From Flavobacteriaceae bacterium (GTDB lineage: Bacteria > Bacteroidota > Bacteroidia > Flavobacteriales > Flavobacteriaceae): a stretch of DNA of 32,000 nt. The stretch is from contig OZ245049.1 in NCBI GenBank assembly GCA_965224465.1, positions 2,880,001-2,912,000 on the forward strand, read 5' to 3'. Positions 10,504 through 24,964 of this stretch are shown in pieces. The translations under genes and the position numbers were made by a program. The notes under the pieces are model-generated. The model was not told where the DNA came from, did not search any database, and saw only the letters and a list, made by a program, of their open reading frames with translations. Within the stretch, counting starts at the first letter, position 1. Every line of letters begins with the position of its first letter.

Positions 10504-11112
10504 TTAATAATAACAACCTTTACCACCATGACCACGGTTATTTAACAATCCAGACATGCGCATAATTAAAGTCATCGAATATAAAAAATGGGCAGGTACA
10601 TATTGGTTCGATTCACTGGTATGTTTGTACATTCCTTGAAAATTTAAACCTACAGAATCGTTGATCCAAATAGAAGTTCCTAAACCACCATTGAATGTAA
10701 CTTCTCCATTTTTACTAACAACAGTATAACCTGCACCAACAAAAGCATAGGGTTGTACGCTAAAATCTGCTGGTAAAAAGGCATATTGTCCAGAAATATC
10801 AATCCCCATATATTTAAGGTTCCTTTTCAACTCTGTGTCCCCTACTTTACCTATACTATTAAAAGAAAGTCCTAAGTCAAGGGCAAATTTTCCTACAAGA
10901 TGTGTAGTCGCATGAATTCGAGGTCCCGAAATAGACCAATGATCTGCTGCATTCGCAAACTCACTAAACATTCCATCTGGATTCCCAGCTTTGGTTGGAT
11001 AAAAATCAACAGCCGTAACTCCTACACCAAATATCCATGTATCGTTTTCGGTTTGAGAAAACAATTGTAGACATAAAAACAAGGTAAAACTTACTAAAAT
11101 ATTTTTTTTCAT
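10504..11112 (-). CDS. small outer-membrane beta-barrel protein, paralogous to the N-terminal domain of the OmpA-family protein at 4436-5845
   Basis: 202-aa ORF with a signal peptide (..LQLFSQ). Blocks WIFGVGVTAVDFYP, ADHWSISGP, FNGGLGTSIWINDSVGLNFQGMYKH match WAIGFGVNAVDFYP, DDHYNMIPS, FNGGAGVNFWFSDNIGLNIQSTYKH in the 469-aa protein. Confidence 0.75.
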   Translation of the reverse strand: MKKNILVSFTLFLCLQLFSQTENDTWIFGVGVTAVDFYPTKAGNPDGMFSEFANAADHWSISGPRIHATTHLVGKFALDLGLSFNSIGKVGDTELKRNLKYMGIDISGQYAFLPADFSVQPYAFVGAGYTVVSKNGEVTFNGGLGTSIWINDSVGLNFQGMYKHTSESNQYVPAHFLYSMTLIMRMSGLLNNRGHGGKGCYY

Positions 11113-11236
11113 TTGCGTATTATTTGGTGTTTAAAAAACACATTTTTAATTCTATATTAGAAACGACATATTTTTACAAATAGTATATCCTAGGGTAAAA
11201 GACCTAAAAAACACACTATTTGCAAAAACGAATTTA

Positions 11237-11671
11237 TTAAATTTTATTCACCTCTTTAATGGCAATCGTAAAATTCTCTAAACTATTATTATTTAATACT
11301 AGATGAATTGCTTCATCTGTTACTTTTTCTACATTACCAACAGAGAAGCCAATACCAACACCAATACGGCGTAACAACGTAGCTTCTGCACCTGTCACTT
11401 CATTATCTGCAAAAATCATGCGTGTTAAATCGTATAAACGCTCTATGCGAATATCATAGCTCTGAGGAGTTGCAATCGCATACTTTTCTGGCGCTTTTAT
11501 GATTTCCTTGTAATGTTCTTCTAAAATATGGAAGCGTTTTGCTAATCTTTTTAACATTATTTCTTCCTCCGTAGAAATGACATCATCTACTAATGCTAAA
11601 CGAACGATGCTCGCAAAATGCATAACATCTCGTTCTTTTTCGCCGTTAAGGTTAAAGTTTGAAATTGACAT
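11237..11671 (-). CDS. hypothetical protein, tentatively TerB-like (tellurite-resistance TerB fold)
   Basis: 144-aa ORF, divergent from mfd. It has two helical half-repeats with acidic/hydrophobic patterns (LALVDDVISTEEEIMLKRLA / IFADNEVTGAEATLLRRIG) like TerB-family proteins. The assignment rests on pattern only. Confidence 0.55.
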   Translation of the reverse strand: MSISNFNLNGEKERDVMHFASIVRLALVDDVISTEEEIMLKRLAKRFHILEEHYKEIIKAPEKYAIATPQSYDIRIERLYDLTRMIFADNEVTGAEATLLRRIGVGIGFSVGNVEKVTDEAIHLVLNNNSLENFTIAIKEVNKI

Positions 11672-11759
11672 ATATAGTTTTTTGCAGCAAATATAAGTAT
11701 TAATTTCAGTTTCAAAAACATCGACACAGCATCTTCTTAAAATTAACTGATAGATTTCT

Positions 11760-11767
11760 TATATTTG
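11760..11767 (+). promoter_or_regulatory. candidate Bacteroidota -7 promoter element TATATTTG (TAnnTTTG) upstream of mfd
   Basis: Exact match to the TAnnTTTG consensus, 15 nt before the TTG start at 11782. I did not see a clean -33 TTTG element. Confidence 0.3.
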
Positions 11768-11781
11768 CAAAAAATTTCATA

Positions 11782-14700
11782 TTGAGCAAGGCACATATCT
11801 TAAGCGAAATACAGGCATCGAAAAAAGTTCAAACTTTTATCGAAAACCTTGATAAATCAGTAACGCAACTATCTATATCTGGCCTTGTAGGTTCTTCCTT
11901 ATCGTTTGTTGTATCAGAAGTTTTTAAAAGCACAAACATTCCTTTTTTACTTATTTTCAACGATAAAGAAGAAGCTGCGTATTACCTCAACGATTTTGAA
12001 GCTTTGTTAGGCGATAAAAACGTACTGTTCTACCCCGGATCTTACCGCAGACCATACCAGATAGAAGAAACAGACAATGCCAATGTACTCATGCGCGCAG
12101 AAGTACTCAACCGCATCAATTCAAGAAAAAAACCATCACTCATTGTCACCTACCCAGATGCATTGTTTGAGCAAGTTGTCACCAAAGCAGAATTAAACAG
12201 AAGTACTTTAAAAATAGGAATTACGGACAAATTAGACCTCGATTTCGTAAATGAAGTTCTTTTTGAATACCAATTCAACCGTGTAGATTTTGTAACCGAA
12301 CCAGGGGAGTTTTCGGTTCGCGGAGGGATTATTGATGTGTTTTCATTTTCGAATGATGCGCCTTACCGAATAGAATTTTTTGACGATGAAGTAGAGAGCA
12401 TTCGAACTTTTGATATTGAGACTCAATTATCAACAGAAAAAATCAGTAAGATTTCCATCATCCCAAATCTCGAAAACAAGACAATCAGTGAGAAAAGAGA
12501 AAGCTTTCTAGAATACATTGCATCCAACACCGTAATTTTTGTCAAAAACACAGAACTCATTACAGGCAGACTAGACACTTTATATTCAAAATCTGAAGCA
12601 GCATTCCGTGAACTAAGTGGCACTATAGAACGCGGAGAACCAGCGCAACTATTTTGCAAGAGCACGCGCATCATCCAGCAATTAGAAAAACACACTTTTG
12701 TAAAAATAAACACAAATACATCAACGCAACTAGTAACAGACGCTACAAACATTGGTTTCTCTACAAGTCCACAACCTTCCTTCAACAAACAGTTTAACCT
12801 TTTAATCGAAAACTTACAACTAAACACACGGAAGGGCTATCAAAACTACCTGTTTTGCGACAATCAAAAACAAGCCGATCGTTTTGATGAGATTTTCGGC
12901 GATGAAAGTGATACTATCCAATATGAAACAATCGTTTTTCCATTATTTCAAGGTTTTATAGAAGATGATTTAAAAATTGCTTGTTATACCGATCATCAAA
13001 TATTTGAACGCTACCATAAATTTAGGTTAAAAAACGGATTTTCTAAAAAACAATCCATCTCTTTAAAAGAACTCACCAGTTTAGAAATTGGCGATTATGT
13101 AACTCACATAGACCACGGAATCGGAAAATTTGGAGGACTTCAAAAAATAGATGTAGAAGGCAAAAAACAAGAGGCAATCAAATTAATGTATGGTGAGCGC
13201 GACATCCTATACATTAGTATACACTCTCTTCATAAAATTACAAAATTTACAGGAAAGGATGGGAAGGCACCTAAACTACACAAACTTGGCTCTAATACTT
13301 GGAAAAAACTCAAGCAAAAAACCAAGACACGCATCAAACATATCGCATATAATTTAATTGAATTATACGCCAAAAGAAAAATGCAAAAAGGTTTTCGATT
13401 TAACCAAGACAGTAATTTGCAACACGCACTGGAAGCAAGTTTTATGTACGAAGACACACCAGACCAAATTACCGCAACCCAAGATGTAAAGACAGACATG
13501 GAAATAGACCGACCAATGGACAGGTTGATCTGTGGAGATGTAGGTTTTGGAAAAACAGAAATTGCCATCAGAGCAGCATTTAAAGCTGTAGACAATGGGA
13601 AGCAAGTCGCTATTTTAGTCCCCACAACTATTCTTGCATTTCAGCATTTTAAAACATTTAGCGAACGCTTAAAAGATTTTCCCATAACGGTAGATTACAT
13701 CAATAGATTTAGAACAGGAAACCAACGAAAACAGGTTCTTACAGGTTTGGCTGACGGCAGCTTAGACATTGTAATTGGGACACATCAACTCACTAGCAAT
13801 TCTATCCAATTTAAAGACCTAGGACTGTTGATTATTGACGAAGAACAAAAATTTGGTGTTGCCATAAAAGACAAATTAAAAACACTCAAAGAGTCCATAG
13901 ATACACTTACATTAACAGCTACCCCGATACCAAGAACCTTACAGTTCTCCTTAATGGCAGCCAGGGACATGTCCATCATAAATACGCCTCCTCCAAATAG
14001 ACACCCCATAGAAACCAACGTCGTACGCTTTAATGAAGAATTAATAAGAGATGCTATTAGTTATGAAATAGCCCGTGGTGGACAGGTGTTTTTTATACAC
14101 AACCGCATCGAAAACATCACCGAAGTCGCAGGCATGCTCCAACGATTAGTTCCAGACGCAAAAATAGGTATTGGGCACGGCCAAATGGAAGGGAAAAAAC
14201 TAGAACAATTGATGCTTTCGTTTATCAATAACGAATTTGATGTTTTGGTAGCCACTACCATTATAGAAAGTGGACTAGACGTTCCAAATGCCAACACTAT
14301 GTTTATCAATAATGCCAACAATTTTGGACTCTCAGACCTACATCAAATGCGCGGACGTGTTGGACGATCTAACAAAAAAGCATTTTGTTATTTTATCACG
14401 CCACCCTTCCATATGATAACAGAAGACGCAAGAAAACGGATCAACGCCATTGAGTTGTTTTCAGATTTGGGAAGTGGAATTAATATTGCCATGAAAGATT
14501 TAGAAATACGCGGTGCAGGTGATATTTTAGGCGGTGAACAAAGTGGTTTTATCAATGATATTGGTTTTGATACGTATCAAAAGATACTAAGTGAAGCCAT
14601 CGACGAACTGAAAGAAAACGAATTCAAAAACCTTTACAAAAATGAAAACAAAAAAACGACTAAGGAATTTGTAAAAGACATTCAGATAGACACCGATTTT

Positions 14701-15132
14701 GAAATCCTATTCCCCGACGACTATATCAGTGTGATTTCGGAACGATTAAGCTTGTACAGTGAGCTTAGTAACATCAATACCACAGAAAACCTACAGCTTT
14801 TTGAAAGCAAATTAATTGACAGGTTTGGAGAACTTCCAATTCAAGTAACAGACCTGCTAGATTCCGTACGCTTAAAATGGGCTGCGAAACACATTGGGCT
14901 AGAACGATTGATTTTAAAACGAGATAAAATGATTGGGTACTTTATTTCCAATCAAGACAGTTCTTTTTACGAATCACCCATTTTTACGCGCGTATTGAGT
15001 TTTGTACAATCACAACCCAGAAAATGTACCATGAAAGAGAAACAAACAAAAAACGGGCTTCGATTGTTATTGAGCTTTAATGAAATAACTTCCGTTCAAA
15101 AAGCGTTGAACATCCTAAAAGAAATTCACTAA
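11782..15132 (+). CDS. mfd: transcription-repair coupling factor
   Basis: 1116-aa ORF with a TTG start. It has a UvrB-homology N-terminus, a CarD-like/RNAP-interaction region (..GDYVTHIDHGIGKFGGL..), Walker A GDVGFGKTE, DEEQKFG, TATPIPRT, and helicase motif VI QMRGRVGRS. Confidence 0.95.
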   Translation: MSKAHILSEIQASKKVQTFIENLDKSVTQLSISGLVGSSLSFVVSEVFKSTNIPFLLIFNDKEEAAYYLNDFEALLGDKNVLFYPGSYRRPYQIEETDNANVLMRAEVLNRINSRKKPSLIVTYPDALFEQVVTKAELNRSTLKIGITDKLDLDFVNEVLFEYQFNRVDFVTEPGEFSVRGGIIDVFSFSNDAPYRIEFFDDEVESIRTFDIETQLSTEKISKISIIPNLENKTISEKRESFLEYIASNTVIFVKNTELITGRLDTLYSKSEAAFRELSGTIERGEPAQLFCKSTRIIQQLEKHTFVKINTNTSTQLVTDATNIGFSTSPQPSFNKQFNLLIENLQLNTRKGYQNYLFCDNQKQADRFDEIFGDESDTIQYETIVFPLFQGFIEDDLKIACYTDHQIFERYHKFRLKNGFSKKQSISLKELTSLEIGDYVTHIDHGIGKFGGLQKIDVEGKKQEAIKLMYGERDILYISIHSLHKITKFTGKDGKAPKLHKLGSNTWKKLKQKTKTRIKHIAYNLIELYAKRKMQKGFRFNQDSNLQHALEASFMYEDTPDQITATQDVKTDMEIDRPMDRLICGDVGFGKTEIAIRAAFKAVDNGKQVAILVPTTILAFQHFKTFSERLKDFPITVDYINRFRTGNQRKQVLTGLADGSLDIVIGTHQLTSNSIQFKDLGLLIIDEEQKFGVAIKDKLKTLKESIDTLTLTATPIPRTLQFSLMAARDMSIINTPPPNRHPIETNVVRFNEELIRDAISYEIARGGQVFFIHNRIENITEVAGMLQRLVPDAKIGIGHGQMEGKKLEQLMLSFINNEFDVLVATTIIESGLDVPNANTMFINNANNFGLSDLHQMRGRVGRSNKKAFCYFITPPFHMITEDARKRINAIELFSDLGSGINIAMKDLEIRGAGDILGGEQSGFINDIGFDTYQKILSEAIDELKENEFKNLYKNENKKTTKEFVKDIQIDTDFEILFPDDYISVISERLSLYSELSNINTTENLQLFESKLIDRFGELPIQVTDLLDSVRLKWAAKHIGLERLILKRDKMIGYFISNQDSSFYESPIFTRVLSFVQSQPRKCTMKEKQTKNGLRLLLSFNEITSVQKALNILKEIH

Positions 15133-15136
15133 TACC

Positions 15137-15865
15137 ATGCTAAAAAAAAACATCTTAACTTATTGTTGTTTTCTACTCATAGTAAACAATGCTTTTGCGC
15201 AAAAAACCGCAAATCCTAGACCTAAAAATTCAAGCTTAAAAAAAATGATACTTCCAGCGTCTCTGCTTACACTCGGTTTTATTTTAAACAAAAGTAAGCA
15301 AGAAAAGGACCTCAACAAATCTATTTTAAAAACTGTAAAAACTGACTTTTACACCAACGCTGATGACTACTTAGTACTCACTCCTGGAGTAATTGCAATT
15401 GCAGCCAACATTGCAGGGATAAAAGCAAAAAACCACTGGTTTGACCAAGGAAAAAATGTGTTTATTGCCGTAACTAGTACCTACTTAATCACAACAGGTC
15501 TCAAACAAATATTCCATAAAACGCGTCCAGATCTATCCAATAACTACGCCATGCCTTCTGGACATTCTGCACTTAGTTTTGCGGCCGCTACTGTCCTTTA
15601 CGAGGAATACAAAGACAGTAATCAAACCATTGCCTATAGCGGATTTGCAACATCAAGCGCTGTCGTATATCTACGTATGGCAAATAACCGCCATTGGATT
15701 TCTGACACACTTGTAGGTGCAGGAATTGGAATAGCTGTAGCAAAACTCGTATACCTAATAGAGCCATTAAAGAACTTTAACCCTTTTAAACACACACATG
15801 GCGTAACCGTGTTTCCAACGATTCACAAAAATGAATTTAGCATATCACTTAGCAAAACCTTTTAA
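15137..15865 (+). CDS. PAP2-family phosphatase (membrane/secreted acid phosphatase superfamily)
   Basis: 242-aa ORF starting 4 nt after the mfd stop. All three PAP2 motifs are present: KQIFHKTRPD (Kx6RP), PSGHSA, and RMANNRHWISD (Rx5Hx3D). Confidence 0.85.
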   Translation: MLKKNILTYCCFLLIVNNAFAQKTANPRPKNSSLKKMILPASLLTLGFILNKSKQEKDLNKSILKTVKTDFYTNADDYLVLTPGVIAIAANIAGIKAKNHWFDQGKNVFIAVTSTYLITTGLKQIFHKTRPDLSNNYAMPSGHSALSFAAATVLYEEYKDSNQTIAYSGFATSSAVVYLRMANNRHWISDTLVGAGIGIAVAKLVYLIEPLKNFNPFKHTHGVTVFPTIHKNEFSISLSKTF

Positions 15866-16054
15866 AAACACCCCTAATTTAAAAATACAATATAAAATTA
15901 ATTTCAACCAAAACACAACAATAAACCCTTATAACATTACTGAGTCTATCATTGGTGTAAGGACTTCTATTTGTTTCTTTTACAGCACTCAAACAACCAC
16001 ACAAGAAAACAACAGAGGAGATATATACATTTTTTTTCACTACATTGCATCATC

Positions 16055-16627
16055 ATGAAAAAAATATTCCTCAAATTAATATTTCTGTTTATTGTTTCCA
16101 ACCAAATAAACGCACAAAGCAACACATATACAAGTATTGAAATTATCGCAATTAACACAAGTTCTCAAGCAGGAGAAGGCGATTTGTATTTTGATGTTAA
16201 TTTATCGCTATGGTATATAGGCTTAACAAACGGTAAATTAAAAGAAATCCTACCCCCACAAACCCTTACGTACGACAACCTTACAGGCACCTTAAACATC
16301 TCAAAAGGAAACTCAGTAATCATTTCAAATACAGTCGCTGTAAAACAGATTGAGACATCCTATACGGTGACTCCTGACGATGCAGGAACCGTAATTTGTG
16401 TTGATAGTACGTCAGGCACCACACTCACCATTCCAGATACGCTTCCTATAGGTTTTCATATTAGTATTTATCAAATAGGCACAGGGCAAGTAACAATTAC
16501 CGGATCTGGAACTCGGATTATAAAACACAGACTCAACAGGTATAAAACCGCTGGACAAGACGCAGGAGTAGGTCTAATTTGCACCAAAGGAGCAACAGCT
16601 CACCTTACTGGAGATCTTTCTAACTAA
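16055..16627 (+). CDS. small secreted protein of unknown function (cassette A, gene 1)
   Basis: The ORF track opens at 15971. The in-frame ATG at 16055 gives a canonical signal peptide, MKKIFLKLIFLFIVSNQINAQ. It is a paralog of 19080-19601, sharing AGEGDLY, PIGFHISIYQIGTGQVTITGSG, HRLNRYKTAGQDAGVGLICT and HLTGDLSN. Confidence 0.8.
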   Translation: MKKIFLKLIFLFIVSNQINAQSNTYTSIEIIAINTSSQAGEGDLYFDVNLSLWYIGLTNGKLKEILPPQTLTYDNLTGTLNISKGNSVIISNTVAVKQIETSYTVTPDDAGTVICVDSTSGTTLTIPDTLPIGFHISIYQIGTGQVTITGSGTRIIKHRLNRYKTAGQDAGVGLICTKGATAHLTGDLSN

Positions 16628-16676
16628 TCTAACTTTACCTTATTTTTAGCCCCCTCAAAAAATTAAAACACCCCAA

Positions 16677-17639
16677 GTGATAGATGTAACACCCCCCTCA
16701 AAGCATTTGAAAAATTGCTGTCTTTATTTACTATTGTTTTATAGCATCGTAGGTTTTACTCAGATAGGAAACTACAACCAATACCCTACCCTAACACCAC
16801 AACGTCCTATTGACTTAACAAGTAATTATCTTTTGGATACACACTTGAATAAGATAAGTTTTGCGTACTCATTTCGAAAATTAAAATCAGACTACACAGG
16901 ACCTCTAGTACGCTTAAGAAGGGGGAACGACAATGAAGAACGTAATTTCTACGTTCAAGACACAGATGCATTAATTGACATCAACGCTATTAACAATTGG
17001 CTGCAAGGGAATAATGCTTTTATGGTTATTTGGTACGACCAAAGTGGACAGGAACGAAATGCCATTCAAAACACCAAAATTTACCAACCACGATTTATCC
17101 CAAACGTGATACGTCCCTATTTCGTAGGAGATGGCAATAACGACTATCTAGTTGTTGAAACCAGCATGCAAGTCCTCACGAAAAATGGAAGGGAAGGAAG
17201 TGTATTTATAAGCTGCTTCGCCACCAACAAGTCTCAATCTATTTTTGGAGCAAAATCTAACAGCAATAACAAAGATAGGTGGTCTGCTCACCTTAATTGG
17301 AACAATGGTAATGCCTACTGGGATCCAGGTTATTGTTGTCTTAGCGGGAGAAATTTCAATAATAATGCAAATATACATTTATGGAAATTATATACATTTA
17401 TACGCAAAACAGCAACCGCTCAAGCACGTGTAAATGGGACTATTAAGACAAATTTTAATTTTTCTCCTAGTTACCGATTTACAAAAAACACCTATTTTGG
17501 AATACTACGTGCCTTGAACAATGGCTCCGACGGACATGCCAACAACAGGATTAACGAAATGATTCTCTACAATGATAAATTAGGGAATGCCACCACTGCA
17601 AATATCGAAAACAATATCATCGCTTATTGGAATTTGTAA
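16677..17639 (+). CDS. secreted protein with a GH54 catalytic-domain-like (AbfB 'ArabFuran-catal') / concanavalin-like fold (cassette A, gene 2)
   Basis: 320-aa ORF with a GTG start at 16677. An alternative TTG at 16707 gives signal peptide MKNCCLYLLLFYSIVGFTQ. Motif pattern: FAYSFRKLKSDYTGPLVRLRRGNDNEE..WYDQSGQERNA..QPRF..GNAYWDPGYCC..ILYND. From memory this resembles the N-terminal part of fungal GH54 arabinofuranosidase catalytic domains. It is a paralog of 18169-19077. Confidence 0.75.
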   Translation: MIDVTPPSKHLKNCCLYLLLFYSIVGFTQIGNYNQYPTLTPQRPIDLTSNYLLDTHLNKISFAYSFRKLKSDYTGPLVRLRRGNDNEERNFYVQDTDALIDINAINNWLQGNNAFMVIWYDQSGQERNAIQNTKIYQPRFIPNVIRPYFVGDGNNDYLVVETSMQVLTKNGREGSVFISCFATNKSQSIFGAKSNSNNKDRWSAHLNWNNGNAYWDPGYCCLSGRNFNNNANIHLWKLYTFIRKTATAQARVNGTIKTNFNFSPSYRFTKNTYFGILRALNNGSDGHANNRINEMILYNDKLGNATTANIENNIIAYWNL

Positions 17640-17643
17640 TCTC

Positions 17644-17745
17644 ATACTAAATACATTTCTAAGTGACGGTTTAGGAATGGAATTGTATTTTGTTTTAGCT
17701 AGGTGAAAAATGGATGAATAGCCATAGCTATCATTCTATTTTTCA
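17644..17745 (+). repeat. dispersed ~100-nt intergenic element, copy 1
   Basis: Aligns end to end at roughly 75-80% identity (by eye) with the reverse complements of 27841-27942 and 27470-27575. The core AGGTGAAAAATGGATGAATAGCCATAGCTAT is near-identical to copy 3. It starts 5 nt after the stop of the + strand gene. Confidence 0.7.
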
Positions 17746-18168
17746 ACAACGATAGCACGTAGAATAAATCATACTACTGTCCGTAAGGCTTCTTAAATCA
17801 GGAAGGTTGCCTCACTTCTAAGCACTTCCTTTACCGCATCACATTACAACTTCCATCTCTAGAATTATATCAGGTGAATATCGACATGAAACAAAGGAAA
17901 TAATAATAAATATTCTAGACGTAAATATTCAATGATACCTTTAATTAAATAACCGTAAACTATTGATATAAACTAAATTTAGATAATATATAAATTCAAG
18001 TTTGTTGACATTATAATTCGTTACTTCCGTGTCAATCTTACGCCTCATAACAACTTCCATTTCTGAAATTACAAAGGGTTTTCTATGAAAACATTTATAG
18101 TTCTATAGGATCTAAAACTAAACGGATCCAAGTTCTATTTCCTACTTGGATTTAAGCCTTTAGAAAAA

Positions 18169-19077
18169 TCAATTCCCCCAGTATAACATCATATTTAATT
18201 CAATCGGCTCATAAAACACAGGACTCATATCTATTTTATAGAGGATAAATTCGGTAAACCTCGTCGTCGCAAAACTATGATTTGCACCATTAGAAAAACA
18301 TATTCCAAAATTATGGTTCTTTGAAAACCTATCAGAAGCGTTAACCGATCCACTATTTTTTAATACATTATCCTTTCTTAGAATTACTTTGTCCAACTTA
18401 CGAACAAAAGTAAATTGCGCCCAAGTATTATCAGGATTCACAAAACTTCTTGGACCAGTACAGCAAGTACCACCATCAAAATAAGCATTTCCATCATCCA
18501 AATTTAAGTGAGATGACCAACGTTCACCACTCAGAAGAACACCAAAACTATTTTGACTTTTACTTGTTGAAAAAAAATACCCTATCACAGTTCCTTCTTT
18601 CCCATTATTGGTCACATTTTGCATATTTCCACTAGCAACAATCAATTTATCGTCTATACCATCCCCTGCTAAATAAGGACGTATAGGATCTGGATAAAAA
18701 CGAGGTTGTTTTGTACTATTTCCTTGTCCTGCATCACCTGCAATACCACCTTGATTGTACCATTTTTGAACATACACATTAGCCGTACCCCTCCAGGCAT
18801 TAATAGCTTCGACATCAACCATTCCTTGACTTGTAGCAGAAAAATTTGAAAATGTATTATCCGAATCTCTTCTTAAACGAATTAGTGGACCATTGTAATC
18901 AGTAATTATTTTTCGCATAGAAAAGGCAAAACTCAACATACTTGACTCAATATCGGGAATCGCAACTTGATCAACTACCAAGGGCGTCATAGTAGGATAT
19001 TGATTAAAATAGGCAATTTGAGCACCTGCATCTATACAACAACTTAAAATAAGTAAAAAAACAAGTCTATTTAACAT
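18169..19077 (-). CDS. secreted GH54-like/concanavalin-like protein (cassette B, gene 2), paralog of 16677-17639
   Basis: The ORF is open to 19128. The ATG at 19077 gives signal peptide MLNRLVFLLILSCCIDAGAQ and lies 2 nt after the upstream gene's stop (TGAtcATG). Shared blocks with the paralog are FAFSMRKIITDYNGPLIRLRRDSDN, WYNQGG, QPRFYPDPIRPY, DGNAYFDGGTCC and ILY. Identity by eye is ~40%. Confidence 0.75.
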   Translation of the reverse strand: MLNRLVFLLILSCCIDAGAQIAYFNQYPTMTPLVVDQVAIPDIESSMLSFAFSMRKIITDYNGPLIRLRRDSDNTFSNFSATSQGMVDVEAINAWRGTANVYVQKWYNQGGIAGDAGQGNSTKQPRFYPDPIRPYLAGDGIDDKLIVASGNMQNVTNNGKEGTVIGYFFSTSKSQNSFGVLLSGERWSSHLNLDDGNAYFDGGTCCTGPRSFVNPDNTWAQFTFVRKLDKVILRKDNVLKNSGSVNASDRFSKNHNFGICFSNGANHSFATTRFTEFILYKIDMSPVFYEPIELNMMLYWGN

Positions 19078-19079
19078 GA

Positions 19080-19601
19080 TCAATTTTTTAAATCTCCCGT
19101 TAAATGATATGTGTTTAGCGCCGTGCATAAAACACCAACACCCGCATGTTTCCCTGCCGTCTGAAAATAATTTAGACGGTGAAAAACGGTGACTCCAGCA
19201 GCACCAATAATCGTGATTTTCCCATCACCTGTCTGATAAATACTAATATGAGTCCCTATAGGAGTACCTGCAGGCAATGTAAATTCAACATCTTGAGTAC
19301 TCTCTATGGTAAAAGCCATCCCACTTTCAACTTCTTTTAAGGTATAAGAACCTGTTTTATGTATTATTTTTGCATATTTAGTAATCAAGATTTTTAAAGA
19401 ACCATCAGACGCTCCAATATATTGAATATCATTGGTAATGTCTTTGTACATATCCCCTTCTCCAGCTGTTTTACTAAAGTGAATTCCCGCTATTTCAACC
19501 TCCGTATAATTCTGACCATAGCACATACCTACCGATAATAAAATAGGGCTCAACTTGTAAATAGCGTATTTATTTCGTAACTTACTGAAAAACAGAATCA
19601 T
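19080..19601 (-). CDS. small secreted protein paralog (cassette B, gene 1), 5' end interrupted by an IS; the first 18 codons are IS-derived
   Basis: 173-aa ORF sharing AGEGDMY, PIGTHISIYQTGDGKITIIGAAG, HRLNYFQTAGKHAGVGVLCT and HLTGDLKN with 16055-16627. Codons 1-18 (MILFFSKLRNKYAIYKLS) lie inside the IS left end (from 19547 upward). The native N-terminus is displaced to 20646-20673. Confidence 0.7.
   Translation of the reverse strand: MILFFSKLRNKYAIYKLSPILLSVGMCYGQNYTEVEIAGIHFSKTAGEGDMYKDITNDIQYIGASDGSLKILITKYAKIIHKTGSYTLKEVESGMAFTIESTQDVEFTLPAGTPIGTHISIYQTGDGKITIIGAAGVTVFHRLNYFQTAGKHAGVGVLCTALNTYHLTGDLKN
19539..19546. repeat. target-site duplication TAAAATAG (left copy)
   Basis: Identical 8-mer directly abuts both IS termini, at 19539-19546 and 20638-20645. 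Confidence 0.8.
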
Positions 19602-20637
19602 TATGGATAATTCAGCTATTTTAAAATATTTTGACTGTCTAGATGTAACTAAGCAGGATATTTTGCTTAAAGAATTTCAGTCTCTTTGCAAATCAGGAAG
19701 TTATGTAGATATTATTAAAATGAGAGGGAATGCTTTAGATGACAGAAGGGGTGAATGCCCTTACTGCAATGGCTATCACTATATAAAAGCAGGTGTAGAT
19801 AAAAACAGCAGGCGTTATAAATGTAAAGATTGTAAACGTACTTTTACTGAATTTACCGGCAGTTGGCTAGCTGGGATACACAAAAAGCAACGCATACCAG
19901 CCTTTTTAAAAACACTTGAATTGAATTTAAGTTTGGTTAAAACAGGAAAGGATCTTTCCATAGATCCAGGGACGGCATTTAGATGGCGTCATCGTTTTTT
20001 ATCTGCTATGTTCCAAGAAACCACAGGTCATTTCAAAGGAATCACCGAGAGTGATGAGACCTTTTATTTACACAGTCAAAAAGGTAAAAAGTGTGTACAT
20101 AGACCTCCCAGAAGTAGATCCGAAAAGAAAGGGGCAGGTATAACAAAAGAATACGCAACGGTATTAACAACCCAAGATAGAGCAGAACTATGCGTTTCTA
20201 AATTTACAAATATGGGCAGAATTACCAAGAGTAATATAAAAAACACTATCGGAAGCATGGTAGATAATAGAACCGTATTTTGTTCTGATGGACACCGTAG
20301 TTTTACTGGGTTTAGTAAGGATTTACATTTAGAGCATCATGTTTTAAACAGCAGTAAAAACCAACGAGTCAAAGGGACTTATCATATTCAGCACATCAAT
20401 AGTTTGCATAGTAGGTTAAAGACATTTTGTAACGTAAAATTAAAAGGAGTATCCACAAAATATCTTCAAAAATATTTAAATTGGCAAACAATTAAAGATT
20501 CATATCGTAAAGAATCAAATTGGGTAGTTACTGTCCTTAAGTACTCAATGAAACGTTCAAATGCAATTAAAATATATAACAATATCCAAACTGATTATAA
20601 CAAAATTTTTATAACAACGCTAAATGCTAGTTGAGCC
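19547..20637 (+). mobile_element. IS1595-family insertion sequence (1091 bp)
   Basis: Imperfect terminal inverted repeats: GGCTCAACTTGTAAATAGCGTATTTAT on the left versus the reverse complement of the right end, GGCTCAACTAGCATTTAGCGTTGTTAT (20/27, first 9 nt identical). There is one transposase ORF whose stop lies in the right IR, and a perfect 8-bp flanking direct repeat. Confidence 0.85.
19603..20634 (+). CDS. IS1595-family transposase (N-terminal zinc ribbon plus DDE domain)
   Basis: 343-aa ORF with zinc ribbon CPYCNGYHYIKAG..RRYKCKDCKRTF, followed by DDE-type blocks ITESDETFYL and VFCSDGHRSF. Size and architecture fit IS1595 (ISXO2-like) transposases. Confidence 0.85.
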   Translation: MDNSAILKYFDCLDVTKQDILLKEFQSLCKSGSYVDIIKMRGNALDDRRGECPYCNGYHYIKAGVDKNSRRYKCKDCKRTFTEFTGSWLAGIHKKQRIPAFLKTLELNLSLVKTGKDLSIDPGTAFRWRHRFLSAMFQETTGHFKGITESDETFYLHSQKGKKCVHRPPRSRSEKKGAGITKEYATVLTTQDRAELCVSKFTNMGRITKSNIKNTIGSMVDNRTVFCSDGHRSFTGFSKDLHLEHHVLNSSKNQRVKGTYHIQHINSLHSRLKTFCNVKLKGVSTKYLQKYLNWQTIKDSYRKESNWVVTVLKYSMKRSNAIKIYNNIQTDYNKIFITTLNAS

Positions 20638-20645
20638 TAAAATAG
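20638..20645. repeat. target-site duplication TAAAATAG (right copy)
   Basis: See the left copy. An 8-bp TSD is the length expected for the IS1595 family. Confidence 0.8.
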
Positions 20646-20673
20646 CTATAAAATAAAATATTTTCATTTTCAT
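20646..20673 (-). pseudogene. displaced original 5' end (start codon plus first codons) of the IS-interrupted gene 19080-19546
   Basis: Removing the IS and one TSD copy joins 20673..20646 in frame to 19546. This restores ATG AAA ATG AAA ATA TTT TAT TTT ATA GCT ATT TTA..., giving MKMKIFYFIAILLSVGMCYGQ, a canonical signal peptide similar to the paralog's. Confidence 0.7.
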
Positions 20674-21050
20674 TTTTCCCTTTTCAGTCCATGTTTTGCA
20701 AGACAGCAACAATCAAATTGAGAGCAATCCTGTTATAGCAAGTTACAAAAAAAAACGACATCTATTCATTTAATCATCCATACATGCCTCTAAAACTTGA
20801 TGAATTTCAACAATATTTGATTTTATTATTTAATAAAAAATAGGGATTTAAAAAGCTTAAAACATGATGATTTACGAGTATTAACACACCGTAAAATCAG
20901 CATAAAATAATTAAACCAAACTAATTATTATTTAATTTATATCCCAAAATTAGGAGCATTTAACTCAGAAAAGAAAGCAACGAAAAAACAAGTATAATTA
21001 GTTACATTACAATCCTTTATATTCTGTAATAATAAAAATTAGATAAATAC

Positions 21051-23492
21051 CTACCGATCCGTTTTCTGTATTTTCAACGCACAAAAAGCAGATTTTAATC
21101 CTTTTCCTGTTACAAGTACACTTGCCTTACCTGTTGTATGTGACGCTTGAACAATAAGCACCAACTTCCCACTAAACAACTTCATGGTAGGTTTATGAAA
21201 CAGCTCCAAAGATGTAGCATCCCCATTACAAGCAGCACGATAGACAGCATCTCCAGAAACCTTAAATATTAATTGATCGGTAGCTGTAGGGCAGGGTACA
21301 CCCATTTTATCCACTACAGACACCGTGATATATACCAAATCTTTACCGTCGGGGATGAGTGTTTTTTTATTCATATGGAGGACTATTTGATGAGGAATCC
21401 CTGCTGTTTTAATGGTTTTTTTCATGACAGCATTTCCTGCTGCATCAAAGGCAACAACTTTAAGGCTTCCTGGCTCGTATCTCACATTCATCCACATCAA
21501 ACGATACCGAGACAATTTACTAGACCTGTTTTTAGTCTGTATCCCCATACTTATACCATTCACAAACAATTCTGCACTGTCATAACTTGTATACACGAAT
21601 ACAGGCGTAATTTCACCTTCCCTTCCTTCCCAATTCCAATGCGGCAATATATGCAACGTTGCGTCCTTGGTATTCCATCGACTGCGGTAAAGATAAAAAC
21701 GATCTTTCGGCAAACCAGCCAAATCACTAATTCCAAAATAAGAACTTCGTGAAGGCCAATATTCATCATAAGGAGTCGGTTCTCCTAAATAATCGAATCC
21801 TGTCCATACAAATTCACCAATCACCCATGGTTTATCATCTTGTAAGACAAAATCATCCTCAGGTAGGTTCGACCAACTACAATACTCCAAATCATAAGAA
21901 GAACTCTGAAAATCTGGATAGTGTTTCATGCTCCCTTCTTGTACAGCAAACTTGTAAATCCCTCTAGAGCTAACAGTAGAAGCTGTTTCAGAGCCTAAAA
22001 TAATTTTCTGAGGAAATGTAGCAAACGCTTCCTCGTACAGATGCGTTCTATAATTGAGTCCTGGAATATCCAACAAGGCTCCAAAACCTGACTTCATGGT
22101 TGCTTTTACTTGATCCATACCAACAGTAACAGGTCTAGTTGGGTCTTCTCTATGAAAAATATCTTGTAATTTCTGAGCCCAAGACGCTCCTTTTTTTGTC
22201 CATTGCTCAGGAACTTCGTTTCCTGCACTCCACATCACAATACATGGATGATTTTTAGTTGCCTGCACCAAATTAACAATGTCTTTTTCTACATCCTTTT
22301 CGAAAAAACGATGGTATCCATTTTCTACTTTTGGCGTAGACCATTCATCAAAACTTTCGGCAAGAAAAAGGAATCCCATTTCGTCACATAATTCTAATTG
22401 CTCAAAAGACGGCATATTGTGCGCACTCCTAATCGCATCCACTCCCATATCTTTTAAGATCGTCAATTGCCTGCGCAAAGCCGCTTTATTTACAGCAGTT
22501 CCCAGAGGCCCCAAATCATGGTGTAAACAAACGCCTTTAAATTTTCTAGTTTTCCCATTCAATCTAAAACCATGTGTTCCATCATATTGTATGCTCCGAA
22601 TTCCAAATCGTGTACGGAGTATATCTTTAAGCACCCCCTTTACATATACTTTTGAAATAGCAGTATACAAATAAGGGCTTTCCGGGCTCCATAATTGCGG
22701 ATTTTTAACGATTAATTCTTGTCTAGATTCACCTTCCAATGCATTGTTTACCAAGTTTTCGGAAAGCAGTACTCCCTTCTGGTTTACAATACACGTTTTT
22801 AATAACATCCCAGTACCTAGAAGCGATGTTTTTATGGATACAAGTGCTTTTTCTAAACTGATAAACGGAGTCGTTATTGTAATTCCCCATTGCTTGATAT
22901 GCGCTTGACTTTTTACAATTAATGAAACATTCCGATACAAACCTGCACCAGGATACCAACGAGAAGATTTTTCTTTGTTAGACAATACAACTACCAAAAC
23001 GTTATTTTCCTGAACAGAAGCAGAAATATCAATATAAAAATAACTGTATCCATAATTCCATTCCCCCACTTTTTTTCCGTTCAAGAAAACTGTTGGTTCA
23101 CTCATCGCACCTTCAAACAAAAGGATGATTTTTTTATCAGAAAGTTCCTCCTTTGATAACTTAAATTTTTTGCGATACCAAGCAGTTCCAATATACGGCA
23201 AAGCACCCGTTCTTCCCGTTTTCTCCGTAGCTTTTGTTTCTCCATTTTGAACAATCGCCACACGTTGCTTATCTATTTCCTTGTCAAAAGGCCCATAAAT
23301 TGCCCAATCGTGTGGAACAGAAACAGTTTCCCAATCGGAATCGTTATACTTAAATTCAAATGCATCCTTACAAACCCCCTTCTTGAATTTCCAACCATCA
23401 CTCAACACCCTCGTAGTACGTACCTGAGCGGTACAAAAAAAAGAGATTGCAAAAAAAATAACTACAAAAACAATACGCTGCATTTGAAACAT
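21051..23492 (-). CDS. glycoside hydrolase family 2 (beta-galactosidase/beta-glucuronidase-type)
   Basis: 813-aa ORF with a signal peptide (..FFCTAQ). GH2 sugar-binding N-domain (WKFKKG..DWETVSVPHDW), TIM-barrel region with NHPCIVMWSAGNEV (acid/base Glu in NE) and later ..GEFVWTGFDYLGEP (nucleophile region). Confidence 0.9.
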   Translation of the reverse strand: MFQMQRIVFVVIFFAISFFCTAQVRTTRVLSDGWKFKKGVCKDAFEFKYNDSDWETVSVPHDWAIYGPFDKEIDKQRVAIVQNGETKATEKTGRTGALPYIGTAWYRKKFKLSKEELSDKKIILLFEGAMSEPTVFLNGKKVGEWNYGYSYFYIDISASVQENNVLVVVLSNKEKSSRWYPGAGLYRNVSLIVKSQAHIKQWGITITTPFISLEKALVSIKTSLLGTGMLLKTCIVNQKGVLLSENLVNNALEGESRQELIVKNPQLWSPESPYLYTAISKVYVKGVLKDILRTRFGIRSIQYDGTHGFRLNGKTRKFKGVCLHHDLGPLGTAVNKAALRRQLTILKDMGVDAIRSAHNMPSFEQLELCDEMGFLFLAESFDEWSTPKVENGYHRFFEKDVEKDIVNLVQATKNHPCIVMWSAGNEVPEQWTKKGASWAQKLQDIFHREDPTRPVTVGMDQVKATMKSGFGALLDIPGLNYRTHLYEEAFATFPQKIILGSETASTVSSRGIYKFAVQEGSMKHYPDFQSSSYDLEYCSWSNLPEDDFVLQDDKPWVIGEFVWTGFDYLGEPTPYDEYWPSRSSYFGISDLAGLPKDRFYLYRSRWNTKDATLHILPHWNWEGREGEITPVFVYTSYDSAELFVNGISMGIQTKNRSSKLSRYRLMWMNVRYEPGSLKVVAFDAAGNAVMKKTIKTAGIPHQIVLHMNKKTLIPDGKDLVYITVSVVDKMGVPCPTATDQLIFKVSGDAVYRAACNGDATSLELFHKPTMKLFSGKLVLIVQASHTTGKASVLVTGKGLKSAFCALKIQKTDR

Positions 23493-23565
23493 GGATTGAA
23501 CGAATTTAAAATAATTTTATAAAAATACACAATTCAATTATTATTAAACGTATTATATACCTTAA

Positions 23566-24096
23566 TTATTTAAACAGCTCATAAACTTCATTTGCTGGAT
23601 CGTCATCATCCTTTTTACGTATATTCAACATAAAACCATTGTTGCGTAATAAAGCCTTAGACCTAACATTATCCGAATGGGTGTACGCTTCTATCATTTC
23701 AAAATCACAAGCCTTAAACCCATAGTTTACCACTAGTAAAAGCGCTTCATTCATAATTCCTTTTCCCTGATAACAAGGATGTAAAGCATATCCCAATTCT
23801 GCGGTTTTCATATCATTAGAATAATTCCATAAACAAATACTTCCAATCATTTGATCTGATTCAGCAACACAAATACACCAACTAATTGATTGAACTTGGT
23901 CATATTCTCTAGCTATTTTATCTATAAAGTTCAATGCATCAGAAAGCGATTTTGTCTTGCAATCTTCGGGACGTTCAATAAATTTATTCACCTCCGAATC
24001 TGAACGAAGGAAATAGATTTGATCGGCATCAAGTTTTGTAGTTTCTCGAAGGATAAGACGGTCTGATTTTAATATTGGAAATATAGGTGTTTTCAT
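23566..24096 (-). CDS. GNAT-family N-acetyltransferase (RimJ/RimL-like)
   Basis: 176-aa ORF with an N-terminal ..DRLILRETTKLDADQIYFLRSD.. pattern, a QGKGIMNEAL motif-A-like segment, and a size typical of the Acetyltransf_3 type. Confidence 0.8.
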   Translation of the reverse strand: MKTPIFPILKSDRLILRETTKLDADQIYFLRSDSEVNKFIERPEDCKTKSLSDALNFIDKIAREYDQVQSISWCICVAESDQMIGSICLWNYSNDMKTAELGYALHPCYQGKGIMNEALLLVVNYGFKACDFEMIEAYTHSDNVRSKALLRNNGFMLNIRKKDDDDPANEVYELFK

Positions 24097-24964
24097 TTTT
24101 TTCTATTTTGTGATATTGCTATTCTAGCACTTCAAAACAACAGCAATCACGCTTGTTCTTCCGTGGTTTTATAACTGTTTTTAAGCTAATTTACTCGTAA
24201 TTCAACTGGAATATTCCCCTATGATTCTTTAAAAATTCTCCACAAACATAGCACTGTAATTTGTACCTAGCCACAGCGCAGCAACATAAATAAATAATAC
24301 ACATTCTAATCCTTAATAAGCTTATTCTATGTAAACTATGCAACGATTAGCCTGACGCCAACTTTGTAGGGTCACGGCATGAATACTAATATATATTCTG
24401 GAATACACTCGAAAGCTAGCTTAAATATAATATTGTGAGCTGCATTAGCTTCCCTTTTTAAACAATCCTATATACTTTTTTGTAGCAAATGGGATACTCG
24501 TTTTTTTGGAGGCAATCAATTGTCGTAATTACCTTTCCTTTTTTTATCGAAAAATTATGTGCCACTATACTTAAAGCAGGCGCTAACTTATAACTTTAAT
24601 AAGACGCAGTTAATCGCGATCTAATGAACTATTTAAGTCATCATATATAATGATTACATTTACAGAAAACACAACACTCATTAGGTGACATAATACCTTT
24701 TCGTTTTGTTTTACCTTATCATTAAAGGAGCAAATACTCTTTTTAGGAGCACTACAAGCTACTAAAGATATTATTAATACGTAAATAAAATTACTTTTTA
24801 TAAAAATATAATGACTGATAAATCTATTCTCAACACCTTATATAGCAGTGTTTTCTTGATTTTACATACTAAAACTTTCTTTTTTTATTCTTTTTTATTT
24901 GCAAGAGTGATCAGTATTTCTGCACTAATTCAAGCTATTTTACACCGTTTTATAGCCGCCTAAT

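Follow-up and report, generated by a model that had tools for sequence, protein, structure and literature searches.

Paired genes for a short fibre-like protein and a GH54-fold partner in a Flavobacteriaceae bacterium, and their relationship to phage tail proteins

Organization of the locus

The window analysed here is a stretch of 32,000 nucleotides from the genome of a Flavobacteriaceae bacterium (contig OZ245049.1, positions 2,880,001 to 2,912,000). It contains two gene cassettes, A (positions 16055-17639 of the window, + strand) and B (18169-19601, - strand), which are arranged tail to tail and each of which encodes the same two types of protein, one small and one large. The four open reading frames (ORFs), their strands, the convergent layout and the 529-bp spacer are as described in the original prediction, which was made from the sequence of the window. 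The two-gene operon is widespread, chiefly in marine Flavobacteriia, and both of its products have relatives among the proteins of phage tails.

The small protein of cassette A is encoded by a 190-residue ORF (16055-16627, + strand) that matches the small-family profile with an E-value of 2e-48. It consists of a signal peptide (MKKIFLKLIFLFIVSNQINA/Q), an N-terminal motif of about 45 residues (AGEGDLY...WYIG..G.LK) and a C-terminal beta-sandwich of about 95 residues, and has a 24-residue insertion specific to its subgroup. The large protein of cassette A (16677-17639, + strand) has 320 residues when translated from the GTG at 16677, or alternatively 310 residues from the TTG at 16707. Its signal peptide is followed by a beta-sandwich of the GH54 fold, which bears a D-x-G-x-CC motif. 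On the other strand, large B (18169-19077, - strand) has 302 residues from the ATG at 19077 and is the orthologue of the lone large gene in a syntenic relative, contig L004. Small B, as it is now encoded (19080-19601, - strand), has 173 residues and matches the small-family profile with an E-value of 2e-50. Signal peptides had been assigned to all four proteins. Upon inspection, small A, large A and large B have signal-peptide-like N-termini, whereas that of small B is a chimera with an insertion sequence (IS).

In BLASTP comparisons the two small proteins are 38% identical (E 7e-37) and the two large proteins 39% identical over 309 residues (E 8e-68). Such similarity is far greater than chance would give and agrees with the value of about 40% previously estimated by eye. 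The motifs listed at that time for the small and large proteins are all visible in the pairwise and family alignments.

Conservation of the gene pair

A small-family profile search of species-representative genomes yielded 74 loci. A large-family ORF is situated directly downstream, on the same strand, in 73 of these. The only exception is a contig that ends 156 bp past the small gene, so that the pair is present in 73 of 73 testable loci. The small domain was likewise found directly upstream in all six loci reached via the large protein. The gap between the two genes is mostly -3 to +12 bp. The paired loci are in unrelated neighbourhoods and belong to Aquimarina, Tenacibaculum, Maribacter, Cellulophaga, Sediminicola, Lutibacter, Dokdonia, Tamlana, Flaviramulus, Flavobacterium, Chitinophaga and four Sulfurovum. 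The proposal that the pairing is conserved and functional, which had been drawn from the two cassettes of the window, is thus supported by loci as far afield as Chitinophaga and Sulfurovum.

The small partner varies in length from 161 to more than 1800 residues, and its C-terminal domain is always the part that adjoins the large gene. A fibre protein of more than 1840 residues is encoded in one of the six loci reached via the large protein; in L096 (1-5443) it ends in the small C-terminal domain, and behind it come two large paralogues in tandem and, after these, a CHU_C protein.

The loci are of two styles. The first consists of bare pairs in unrelated housekeeping contexts, such as the pairs of the window; 14 Aquimarina species keep the pair at one conserved housekeeping site. 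The second consists of larger clusters with one to five tandem secreted fibre-like genes, which have the N-terminal motif of about 50 residues found in the small protein. These fibre-like proteins end in other heads, some weakly similar to T4 gp10_C and others similar to fibrinogen/COLFI (collagen-C) domains. The larger clusters (loci L009-L023, L031-L034, L050-L063, L076 and others, for example L015 1-7226) were seen in Tenacibaculum, Maribacter, Cellulophaga, Lutibacter, Dokdonia and Sulfurovum. Loci that also encode a protein of about 385 residues with a CHU_C domain (type IX secretion, type B) number 37, and its gene is usually downstream of the pair; the window has none. A literature search on PF26696, PTL_trimer and PF09206 in a phage context gave nothing relevant, and no paper on this module was found.

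Structure of the small protein

The AlphaFold2 model of the small protein monomer, with a predicted local distance difference test score (pLDDT) of 87, shows residues 30-71 as a helix and a small sheet, and residues 79-173 as a beta-sandwich. In a Foldseek search of the PDB, the model matched the capsid spike of phage Pa223 (E 4e-7), the N-terminal region of CBA120 TSP4 (E 1e-5) and the baseplate of Klebsiella phage KP1. Far weaker matches were found with the T4 baseplate entry 5iv5 (E 0.17), CpaA and StcE. The published list of homologues of the XD1 domain includes TSP4, 5iv5, CpaA and StcE (PMC8825819), and the Foldseek matches TSP4, 5iv5, 6O38 and 4DNY overlap with this list. Since the matches recur there, the C-terminal domain of the small protein is most similar to XD1, rather than to XD2 or XD3.

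In the branched receptor-binding complexes of T4 gp10 and CBA120 TSP4, trimeric beta-sandwich modules carry other tail proteins, with XD1 being regarded as a spacer and docking being assigned to XD2 and XD3 (PMC8825819). The small protein resembles these complexes through its match to TSP4, but it best fits the XD1 type, there is no baseplate at the cassette, and the cassette proteins are exported by the cell. By analogy with its trimeric structural neighbours, the small protein is probably a trimer.

The relationship to phage proteins was found by several routes. In BFVD, 406 phage proteins match the small model at E <= 1e-3, over about 100 residues and with a root-mean-square deviation of 1-1.5 Å; these include tail fibres, minor tail proteins and one Cellulophaga phage structural protein. 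In PHROGs, the small protein matches the C-termini of tail and virion proteins with E-values down to 9e-11. In a tblastn search, 162 minor tail proteins of Gordonia phages were hit, with the domain at their very C-terminal end. A scan of viral contigs with the small profile, using a pattern method, found no relative, although tblastn and Foldseek did find phage relatives, and a sequence-profile search of solved structures with the small family gave no match. Over their C-terminal 95-130 residues or so, phage minor tail proteins and tail fibres such as gp28 of Gordonia phage BaxterFox and a 943-residue minor tail protein from a PinkBerry-associated phage show homology to the small C-terminal domain (hmmsearch E 3e-17, 26-35% identity). 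They differ from the small protein in that they are 500-1000 residues long, have no signal peptide, lie within tail modules and, in the records examined, are not followed by a large-family gene.

None of the four cassette proteins had a match over threshold in Pfam, NCBIfam or PADLOC. Most relatives of the small protein carry the precomputed label PF26696 (PTL_trimer), and both small A and small B are clearly homologous to the labelled members over the C-terminal domain. Thus the small family, which the original prediction did not recognise, can be assigned by way of its relatives, and its C-terminal domain is a common domain of phage tail fibres. The family shows little or no variation in the motifs YT, IS(I/V)YQ, R-L, TAG...AG(V)G and H(L)TGDL. 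The N-terminal motif of about 45 residues is common to many other secreted fibre-like proteins. It weakly resembles the trimerisation domains of collagen XV/XVIII (Foldseek E 3-5), which is a hint only.

Structure of the large protein

The AlphaFold2 model of large A has a pLDDT of 87 and a predicted template-modelling score of 0.81. The five best Foldseek matches are all GH54 arabinofuranosidases of the AbfB type (E 3e-12 to 4e-11, TM scores 0.58-0.60), and these are followed by the lectin-like jelly-roll domains of tetanus and botulinum toxins and of trans-sialidase. Alignment of the large-family profile to 1wd3 with hhalign gave a probability of 92-93% over 240-246 columns, which span the whole catalytic domain. 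A global hhalign run between the large family and GH54 gave a probability of 20%; it was considered unreliable and was disregarded.

The known protein closest in fold is AkAbfB of Aspergillus kawachii (PDB 1WD3, PF09206). The N-terminal 65 residues or so of the large protein are homologous to it and include the motifs ...Y.G.L..L.R.SD... and (W/I)YDQSG. The beta-sandwich fold of AkAbfB is present, as is its H-x-N / F-D-x-G loop. However, the sequence identity is 12-13%, the large protein lacks the CBM42 domain, its hosts are bacteria, and its gene is always paired with a fibre gene. The invariant Cys-Cys pair of the large family is 6 residues away from the C176-C177 pair of GH54. The match to the Pfam family PF09206 (ArabFuran-catal) is below threshold, with scores of 21.9 and 15.6 bits against a gathering score of 25, and relates residues 66-131 to positions 19-84 of 315. 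A profile search of the PDB (E 1.4e-3) detected the same stretch of about 65 residues.

The GH54 acid/base is reportedly Asp297. The nucleophile is Glu221, and PDB entry 6sxr is the E221Q mutant. The catalytic Glu/Asp pair is confirmed in PMC6887791. Conservation of these residues was examined with profiles of 22 and 75 large-family sequences, the GH54 residue numbering having been checked on the 1wd3 chain. Glu221 is not conserved: D219, E221 and N222 fall in a gap in the 75-sequence profile, and in the 22-sequence profile D219 corresponds to Thr and E221 is again in a gap; the alignment is of low confidence in this part. Asp297 is not conserved either. It aligns with N282 of large A, and its column contains Asn in 45 of the 75 sequences, followed by Ala, Ser, Thr and Gly, so that none of the five commonest residues is acidic. 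The features retained from GH54 are the N-terminal motifs, H-x-N, F-D-x-G, in which D216 is invariant (75/75), and a C-terminal Glu. The large protein is thus GH54-like in fold and ancestry only, and the loss of Glu221 and Asp297 suggests that it is lectin-like rather than an arabinofuranosidase. Of the earlier description of the large protein as GH54-like, the fold is upheld by Foldseek and hhalign; the Pfam score and the catalytic residues do not extend the likeness to the enzyme.

An alternative is that the large protein is an active carbohydrate-cleaving depolymerase, derived from GH54 or convergent with it, and that the small trimer is its scaffold, as in phage tailspike depolymerases. 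This would account for GH54 being the best structural match, for the invariant D216 and for the loop shared with the GH54 substrate-pocket region. One large-family relative bears the NCBI name 'arabinofuranosidase catalytic domain-containing protein', and a GH2 gene adjoins the locus both in the window and in L004. Phage proteins at equivalent tail positions are often depolymerases. Nevertheless, the sub-threshold Pfam match covers only a small N-terminal part, the carboxylates are replaced or in a gap, and the GH2 neighbour is not conserved at other loci. Moreover, the large domain occurs in up to 15 tandem copies in giant proteins, an arrangement typical of binding modules and not of enzymes. 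We regard the depolymerase as unlikely, while giving it real weight.

Phage relatives of the large protein

The large domain, with relatives such as P0144-P0291, belongs to a very large superfamily that comprises 15,403 representative clusters (50% identity) at E <= 1e-3, or 7,722 at E <= 1e-10, in an exhaustive profile search. Many members are giant proteins of 1-6 thousand residues with 3-15 tandem large domains, and some PATR-repeat proteins terminate in a large domain. Among the superfamily relatives whose labels were seen, matches to PF09206 are weak or lacking. In the 395-residue protein P0176, a signal peptide and the N-terminal module of the small family (E 4e-14) are joined directly to a large domain, without the small C-terminal domain and without the Cys-Cys pair.

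The phage relatives include gp27 of Gordonia phage Lucky10 and a protein of Synechococcus phage S-CBS4, both of which are annotated as virion structural proteins. These phage proteins (PHROG 10356) share the N-terminal half of the large protein, with 34-47% identity over about 90-150 residues, and have about 285-310 residues. Their genes come right after a fibre or tail gene, at the tail module's distal end. In contrast to the bacterial proteins, the C-terminal halves of these phage proteins have diverged and the upstream phage fibre has no match to the small-family profile. The D.G.CC motif is present in 78 of 81 bacterial large proteins, essentially all of which have signal-peptide-like N-termini; among 11 phage homologues, none has the Cys-Cys pair and one has a signal-peptide-like N-terminus, as judged by a heuristic. 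Because the Cys-Cys pair and the signal peptide mark the bacterial versions, disulfide formation outside the cytoplasm would fit this distribution.

In uncultured phage contigs, a gene for a protein of about 285 residues that resembles the large protein has a collagen-like fibre gene on one side and the lysis genes on the other. In L082-L086 (e.g. L083 603-6562) the order is portal, a 117-residue protein, a collagen-repeat fibre, the 285-residue protein, a 110-residue protein and an amidase; here the gene occupies the slot expected of a distal tail component or a fibre partner. In the P2-like tail module of L089 (3605-5764), a 719-residue protein directly after the tail-fibre gene has an N-terminal region similar to the large protein and a C-terminal part that, by eye, resembles GDSL/SGNH esterases.

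The order of a fibre gene followed by a tightly coupled partner gene also matches the arrangement of phage fibres and their chaperones. It could therefore be supposed that the large protein is an assembly chaperone of the small fibre, similar to phage tail-fibre assembly proteins, and that it is absent from the final structure. The position of the small C-terminal domain, which always adjoins the large gene, agrees with such a role. However, the phage homologues are annotated as structural components of the virion and the large protein exceeds most of its partners in size. A chaperone would also not be expected as tandem domains of giant proteins, at the ends of PATR-repeat proteins, or fused to a fibre N-terminal module that lacks the small C-terminal domain. 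A chaperone is in our opinion quite improbable.

Relationship between the two cassettes

Both partners of cassette A have their nearest relative in Sediminicola luteus, with identities of 54% for the small and 49% for the large protein. Both partners of cassette B are nearest to L004 (small 75%, large 59%) and L005 (small 64%, large 63%). In the same comparison, A and B are 43% identical in their small and 40% in their large proteins. Because the two partners of each cassette share one nearest relative, the cassettes evolve as units.

The related contig L004 has the same gene order of Mfd, PAP2 phosphatase, one cassette and GH2. In blastn alignments to L004, the left flank (10853-15819) is 79% identical, cassette B (18167-19466) 67%, and the right flank (21159-24101) 76%. 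The intervening segment (15820-18166), which holds the spacer, cassette A and the 235 bp that precede this cassette, has no blastn match in L004, and neither does the IS (19547-20637). Since L004 has cassette B only, B is the resident copy, and A is either an addition here or has been lost from the relative. The lower DNA identity of cassette B, as compared to 76-79% in the flanks, indicates that it evolves faster than its surroundings.

The large proteins of both cassettes have rare characters in common. Of 75 large-family proteins, 66 keep a third Cys, in place of which both window copies have Phe or Tyr (F268 of large A and its equivalent in large B); the same replacement is found in L004, L005, L007, L008, L019, L063 and L078. 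The RF(T/S)KN motif occurs only in the window copies and in L004 and L005. In a neighbour-joining tree of the large proteins the A and B clades are sisters, whereas in the trees of the small and of the concatenated proteins they are apart. On these sequence comparisons, an ancient duplication as the source of A and B, which had been proposed earlier, is plausible but not proven. Such a duplication need not have been local, as A and B are only 40-43% identical to each other, compared with 49-54% between A and Sediminicola and 59-75% between B and L004/L005, and L004 contains only B. No convincing repeats that would indicate a mobile insertion were found flanking cassette A. A 65-nt inverted match between the two small genes simply reflects their homology.

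The insertion sequence in small B

An IS of the IS1595 family (19547-20637, + strand, 1091 bp) has inserted into small B after codon 12, within the region that codes for the signal peptide. Its transposase (19603-20634) is intact and has 343 residues. It matches NCBIfam NF033547 with 151 bits against a cut-off of 75, and the Pfam family DDE_Tnp_IS1595; for its N-terminal zinc-binding domain the score is 35.8 bits (cut-off 28). The element has imperfect terminal inverted repeats of 27 nt, which are 78% complementary, and is flanked by a perfect 8-bp target duplication, TAAAATAG, at 19539-19546 and 20638-20645. The DDE transposase, the terminal inverted repeats and the 8-bp target duplication that characterise the IS1595 family are thus all present. 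As the element is intact and the duplication perfect, the insertion must have been recent.

The insertion has separated the 5' end of small B from the remainder of the gene. The severed part (20638-20673, - strand) comprises the start codon and 12 codons of the signal peptide (MKMKIFYFIAIL). The native ATG at 20673-20671 is now 1.1 kb distant from the remaining gene, and the native promoter region is presumably within 20674-21050. Native codons 13-164 (19080-19546, - strand) are now part of an ORF that continues into the end of the IS up to 19601, its first 19 codons (19601-19545) being the left end of the IS. The present signal peptide of small B is therefore an IS chimera, since the IS is situated at codon 12-13, and the 173-residue public gene call of small B corresponds to this chimeric ORF. 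When the IS and one copy of the duplication are excised in silico, a normal signal peptide is regained (MKMKIFYFIAILLSVGMCYG/QNYTEVEI) and the protein has 164 residues, as compared to 161-163 residues in the orthologues. Large B and the remainder of small B are undamaged.

The presence of the IS, the phage-tail origin of both domains and the lack of a counterpart of cassette A in L004 might be taken to mean that the cassettes are the remains of a decaying prophage or mobile cargo without a cellular role, and that their mirror layout is an accident of insertions. However, there are no other phage genes in the window. The cassettes are not part of a phage or prophage structural module, the neighbouring genes being Mfd, PAP2 phosphatase, GH2 and the IS, and related loci are in housekeeping contexts. 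All ORFs are intact except for the one hit by the IS, and the bacterial signal peptides and Cys-Cys pair are unlike the phage versions. The guanine-plus-cytosine (GC) fraction of the cassettes, 0.37 and 0.35, is similar to that of the flanks. The 14 Aquimarina species retain the pair at one core-genome site, and altogether it is kept in more than 70 species. We consider it very unlikely that the cassettes are debris of this kind.

Noncoding sequences

Small A and large A are separated by 49 nt if large A starts at GTG 16677, or by 79 nt if it starts at TTG 16707, as against the family norm of -3 to +12 nt. This gap has no significant RNA fold (16628-16710, z 0.29). Two copies of CCCCCTCAAA are located in the gap, but the repeat enrichment is not significant. 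The spacer between the convergent cassettes (17640-18168, 529 bp) has a GC content of 30% and contains no gene (only two 39-residue ORFs), no Rfam match and no meaningful repeat; an Rfam scan of the whole window gave no matches. A sigma-70 promoter scan was at chance level, with 25 sites compared to 22 expected, and the terminator-like sites, five compared to 2.5 expected, are uninformative. The strict Bacteroidetes motif TAnnTTTG is absent upstream of small A, upstream of native small B and within the IS end.

A possible function of the cassette

The explanation that we favour, with a probability that falls somewhat short of even, is that each cassette encodes an exported, phage-tail-derived short fibre and a lectin-like, glycan-binding partner of the GH54 fold, which act together. 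The two-gene operon would be of phage-tail ancestry and would have been adopted by the cell for export. The small protein would be a Sec-exported short fibre, probably trimeric, whose C-terminal beta-sandwich is like those that terminate phage tail fibres and those of T4 gp9, T4 gp10 and CBA120 TSP4 (XD1-like, and PTL_trimer in its relatives). The large protein, encoded on the same transcript, would also be exported. It would have kept the GH54 fold without the catalytic carboxylates, retained the loop that resembles a sugar pocket (H-x-N ... F-D-x-G), and gained the adjacent Cys-Cys pair, which is confined to the exported bacterial versions. It may serve as a glycan-binding head that works with the small trimer and is probably docked onto it. 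Together, the two proteins would serve outside the cytoplasm as a module that binds polysaccharides or cell surfaces. As to the history of the locus, cassette B would be the resident and cassette A a deep paralogue that came to be set tail to tail beside it; the recent IS1595 insertion in B would then have severed the promoter, the start codon and the first 12 codons of its small gene. The joint action of the small and large proteins is argued from their pairing, the tight coupling of their genes, the fusion protein P0176 and the analogies with phages. While the homology, the strict pairing, the predicted folds, the lack of the GH54 catalytic residues, the IS and the synteny are results of the analysis, the trimer, the contact of the small with the large protein, the binding of glycans and the place of both proteins in the cell are inferences.

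Several observations weigh against this explanation. The loss of the catalytic residues is deduced from a profile alignment at 20-22% identity, which is of low confidence near E221, and a relocated active site is possible. Adjacency of the genes, taken by itself, equally fits a chaperone or an enzyme with its scaffold. In the GenBank phages inspected, small-like and large-like domains are not adjacent. The small proteins of the window (P0022 and P0026) do not themselves carry the precomputed PF26696 label. Finally, the Pfam scan of the small and large proteins revealed no type IX C-terminal domain (for Por_Secre_tail and CHU_C, no hit at E <= 1 in any of the four cassette proteins) and no lipobox, so that a surface or extracellular site is not established and the periplasm is possible.

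The explanation of the cassettes as fibre and lectin can be extended, in what is a speculative and probably incorrect generalisation, to a whole class of proteins. The small-large pair would then be the core of an undescribed class of phage-tail-derived surface fibres made by cells of marine Flavobacteriia and some Sulfurovum. In these fibres a shared N-terminal module, used for trimerisation or anchoring, would be combined with interchangeable heads that are tail-collar/gp10_C-like, fibrinogen-like or PTL_trimer-like, and the PTL_trimer head would dock a free lectin of the GH54 fold. If so, bacteria would possess an equivalent of the branched receptor-binding complexes of phages, displayed in the larger loci by way of the type IX secretion (CHU_C) partner. 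The two diverged cassettes would represent two binding specificities, and the IS insertion would be a way to switch one of them off.

Significance

Aquimarina, Tenacibaculum, Maribacter, Cellulophaga and other marine Flavobacteriia are found on algae, particles and animals, and include pathogens of fish. The ways in which these bacteria recognise surfaces and polysaccharides are understood only in part. The present analysis defines a strictly conserved two-gene module of phage-tail ancestry, which has no published function. The module belongs with the phage-tail-fibre-like secreted proteins and is more general than the window alone. The label 'arabinofuranosidase catalytic domain-containing protein' is probably misleading for the large family, and perhaps for much of its superfamily of more than 15,000 clusters. 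With two diverged copies adjacent to each other, one of them freshly interrupted by an IS, the window provides a natural experiment, and the combination of a trimeric fibre with a catalytically dead lectin of the GH54 fold is offered as a testable hypothesis of how this module may function in these bacteria.

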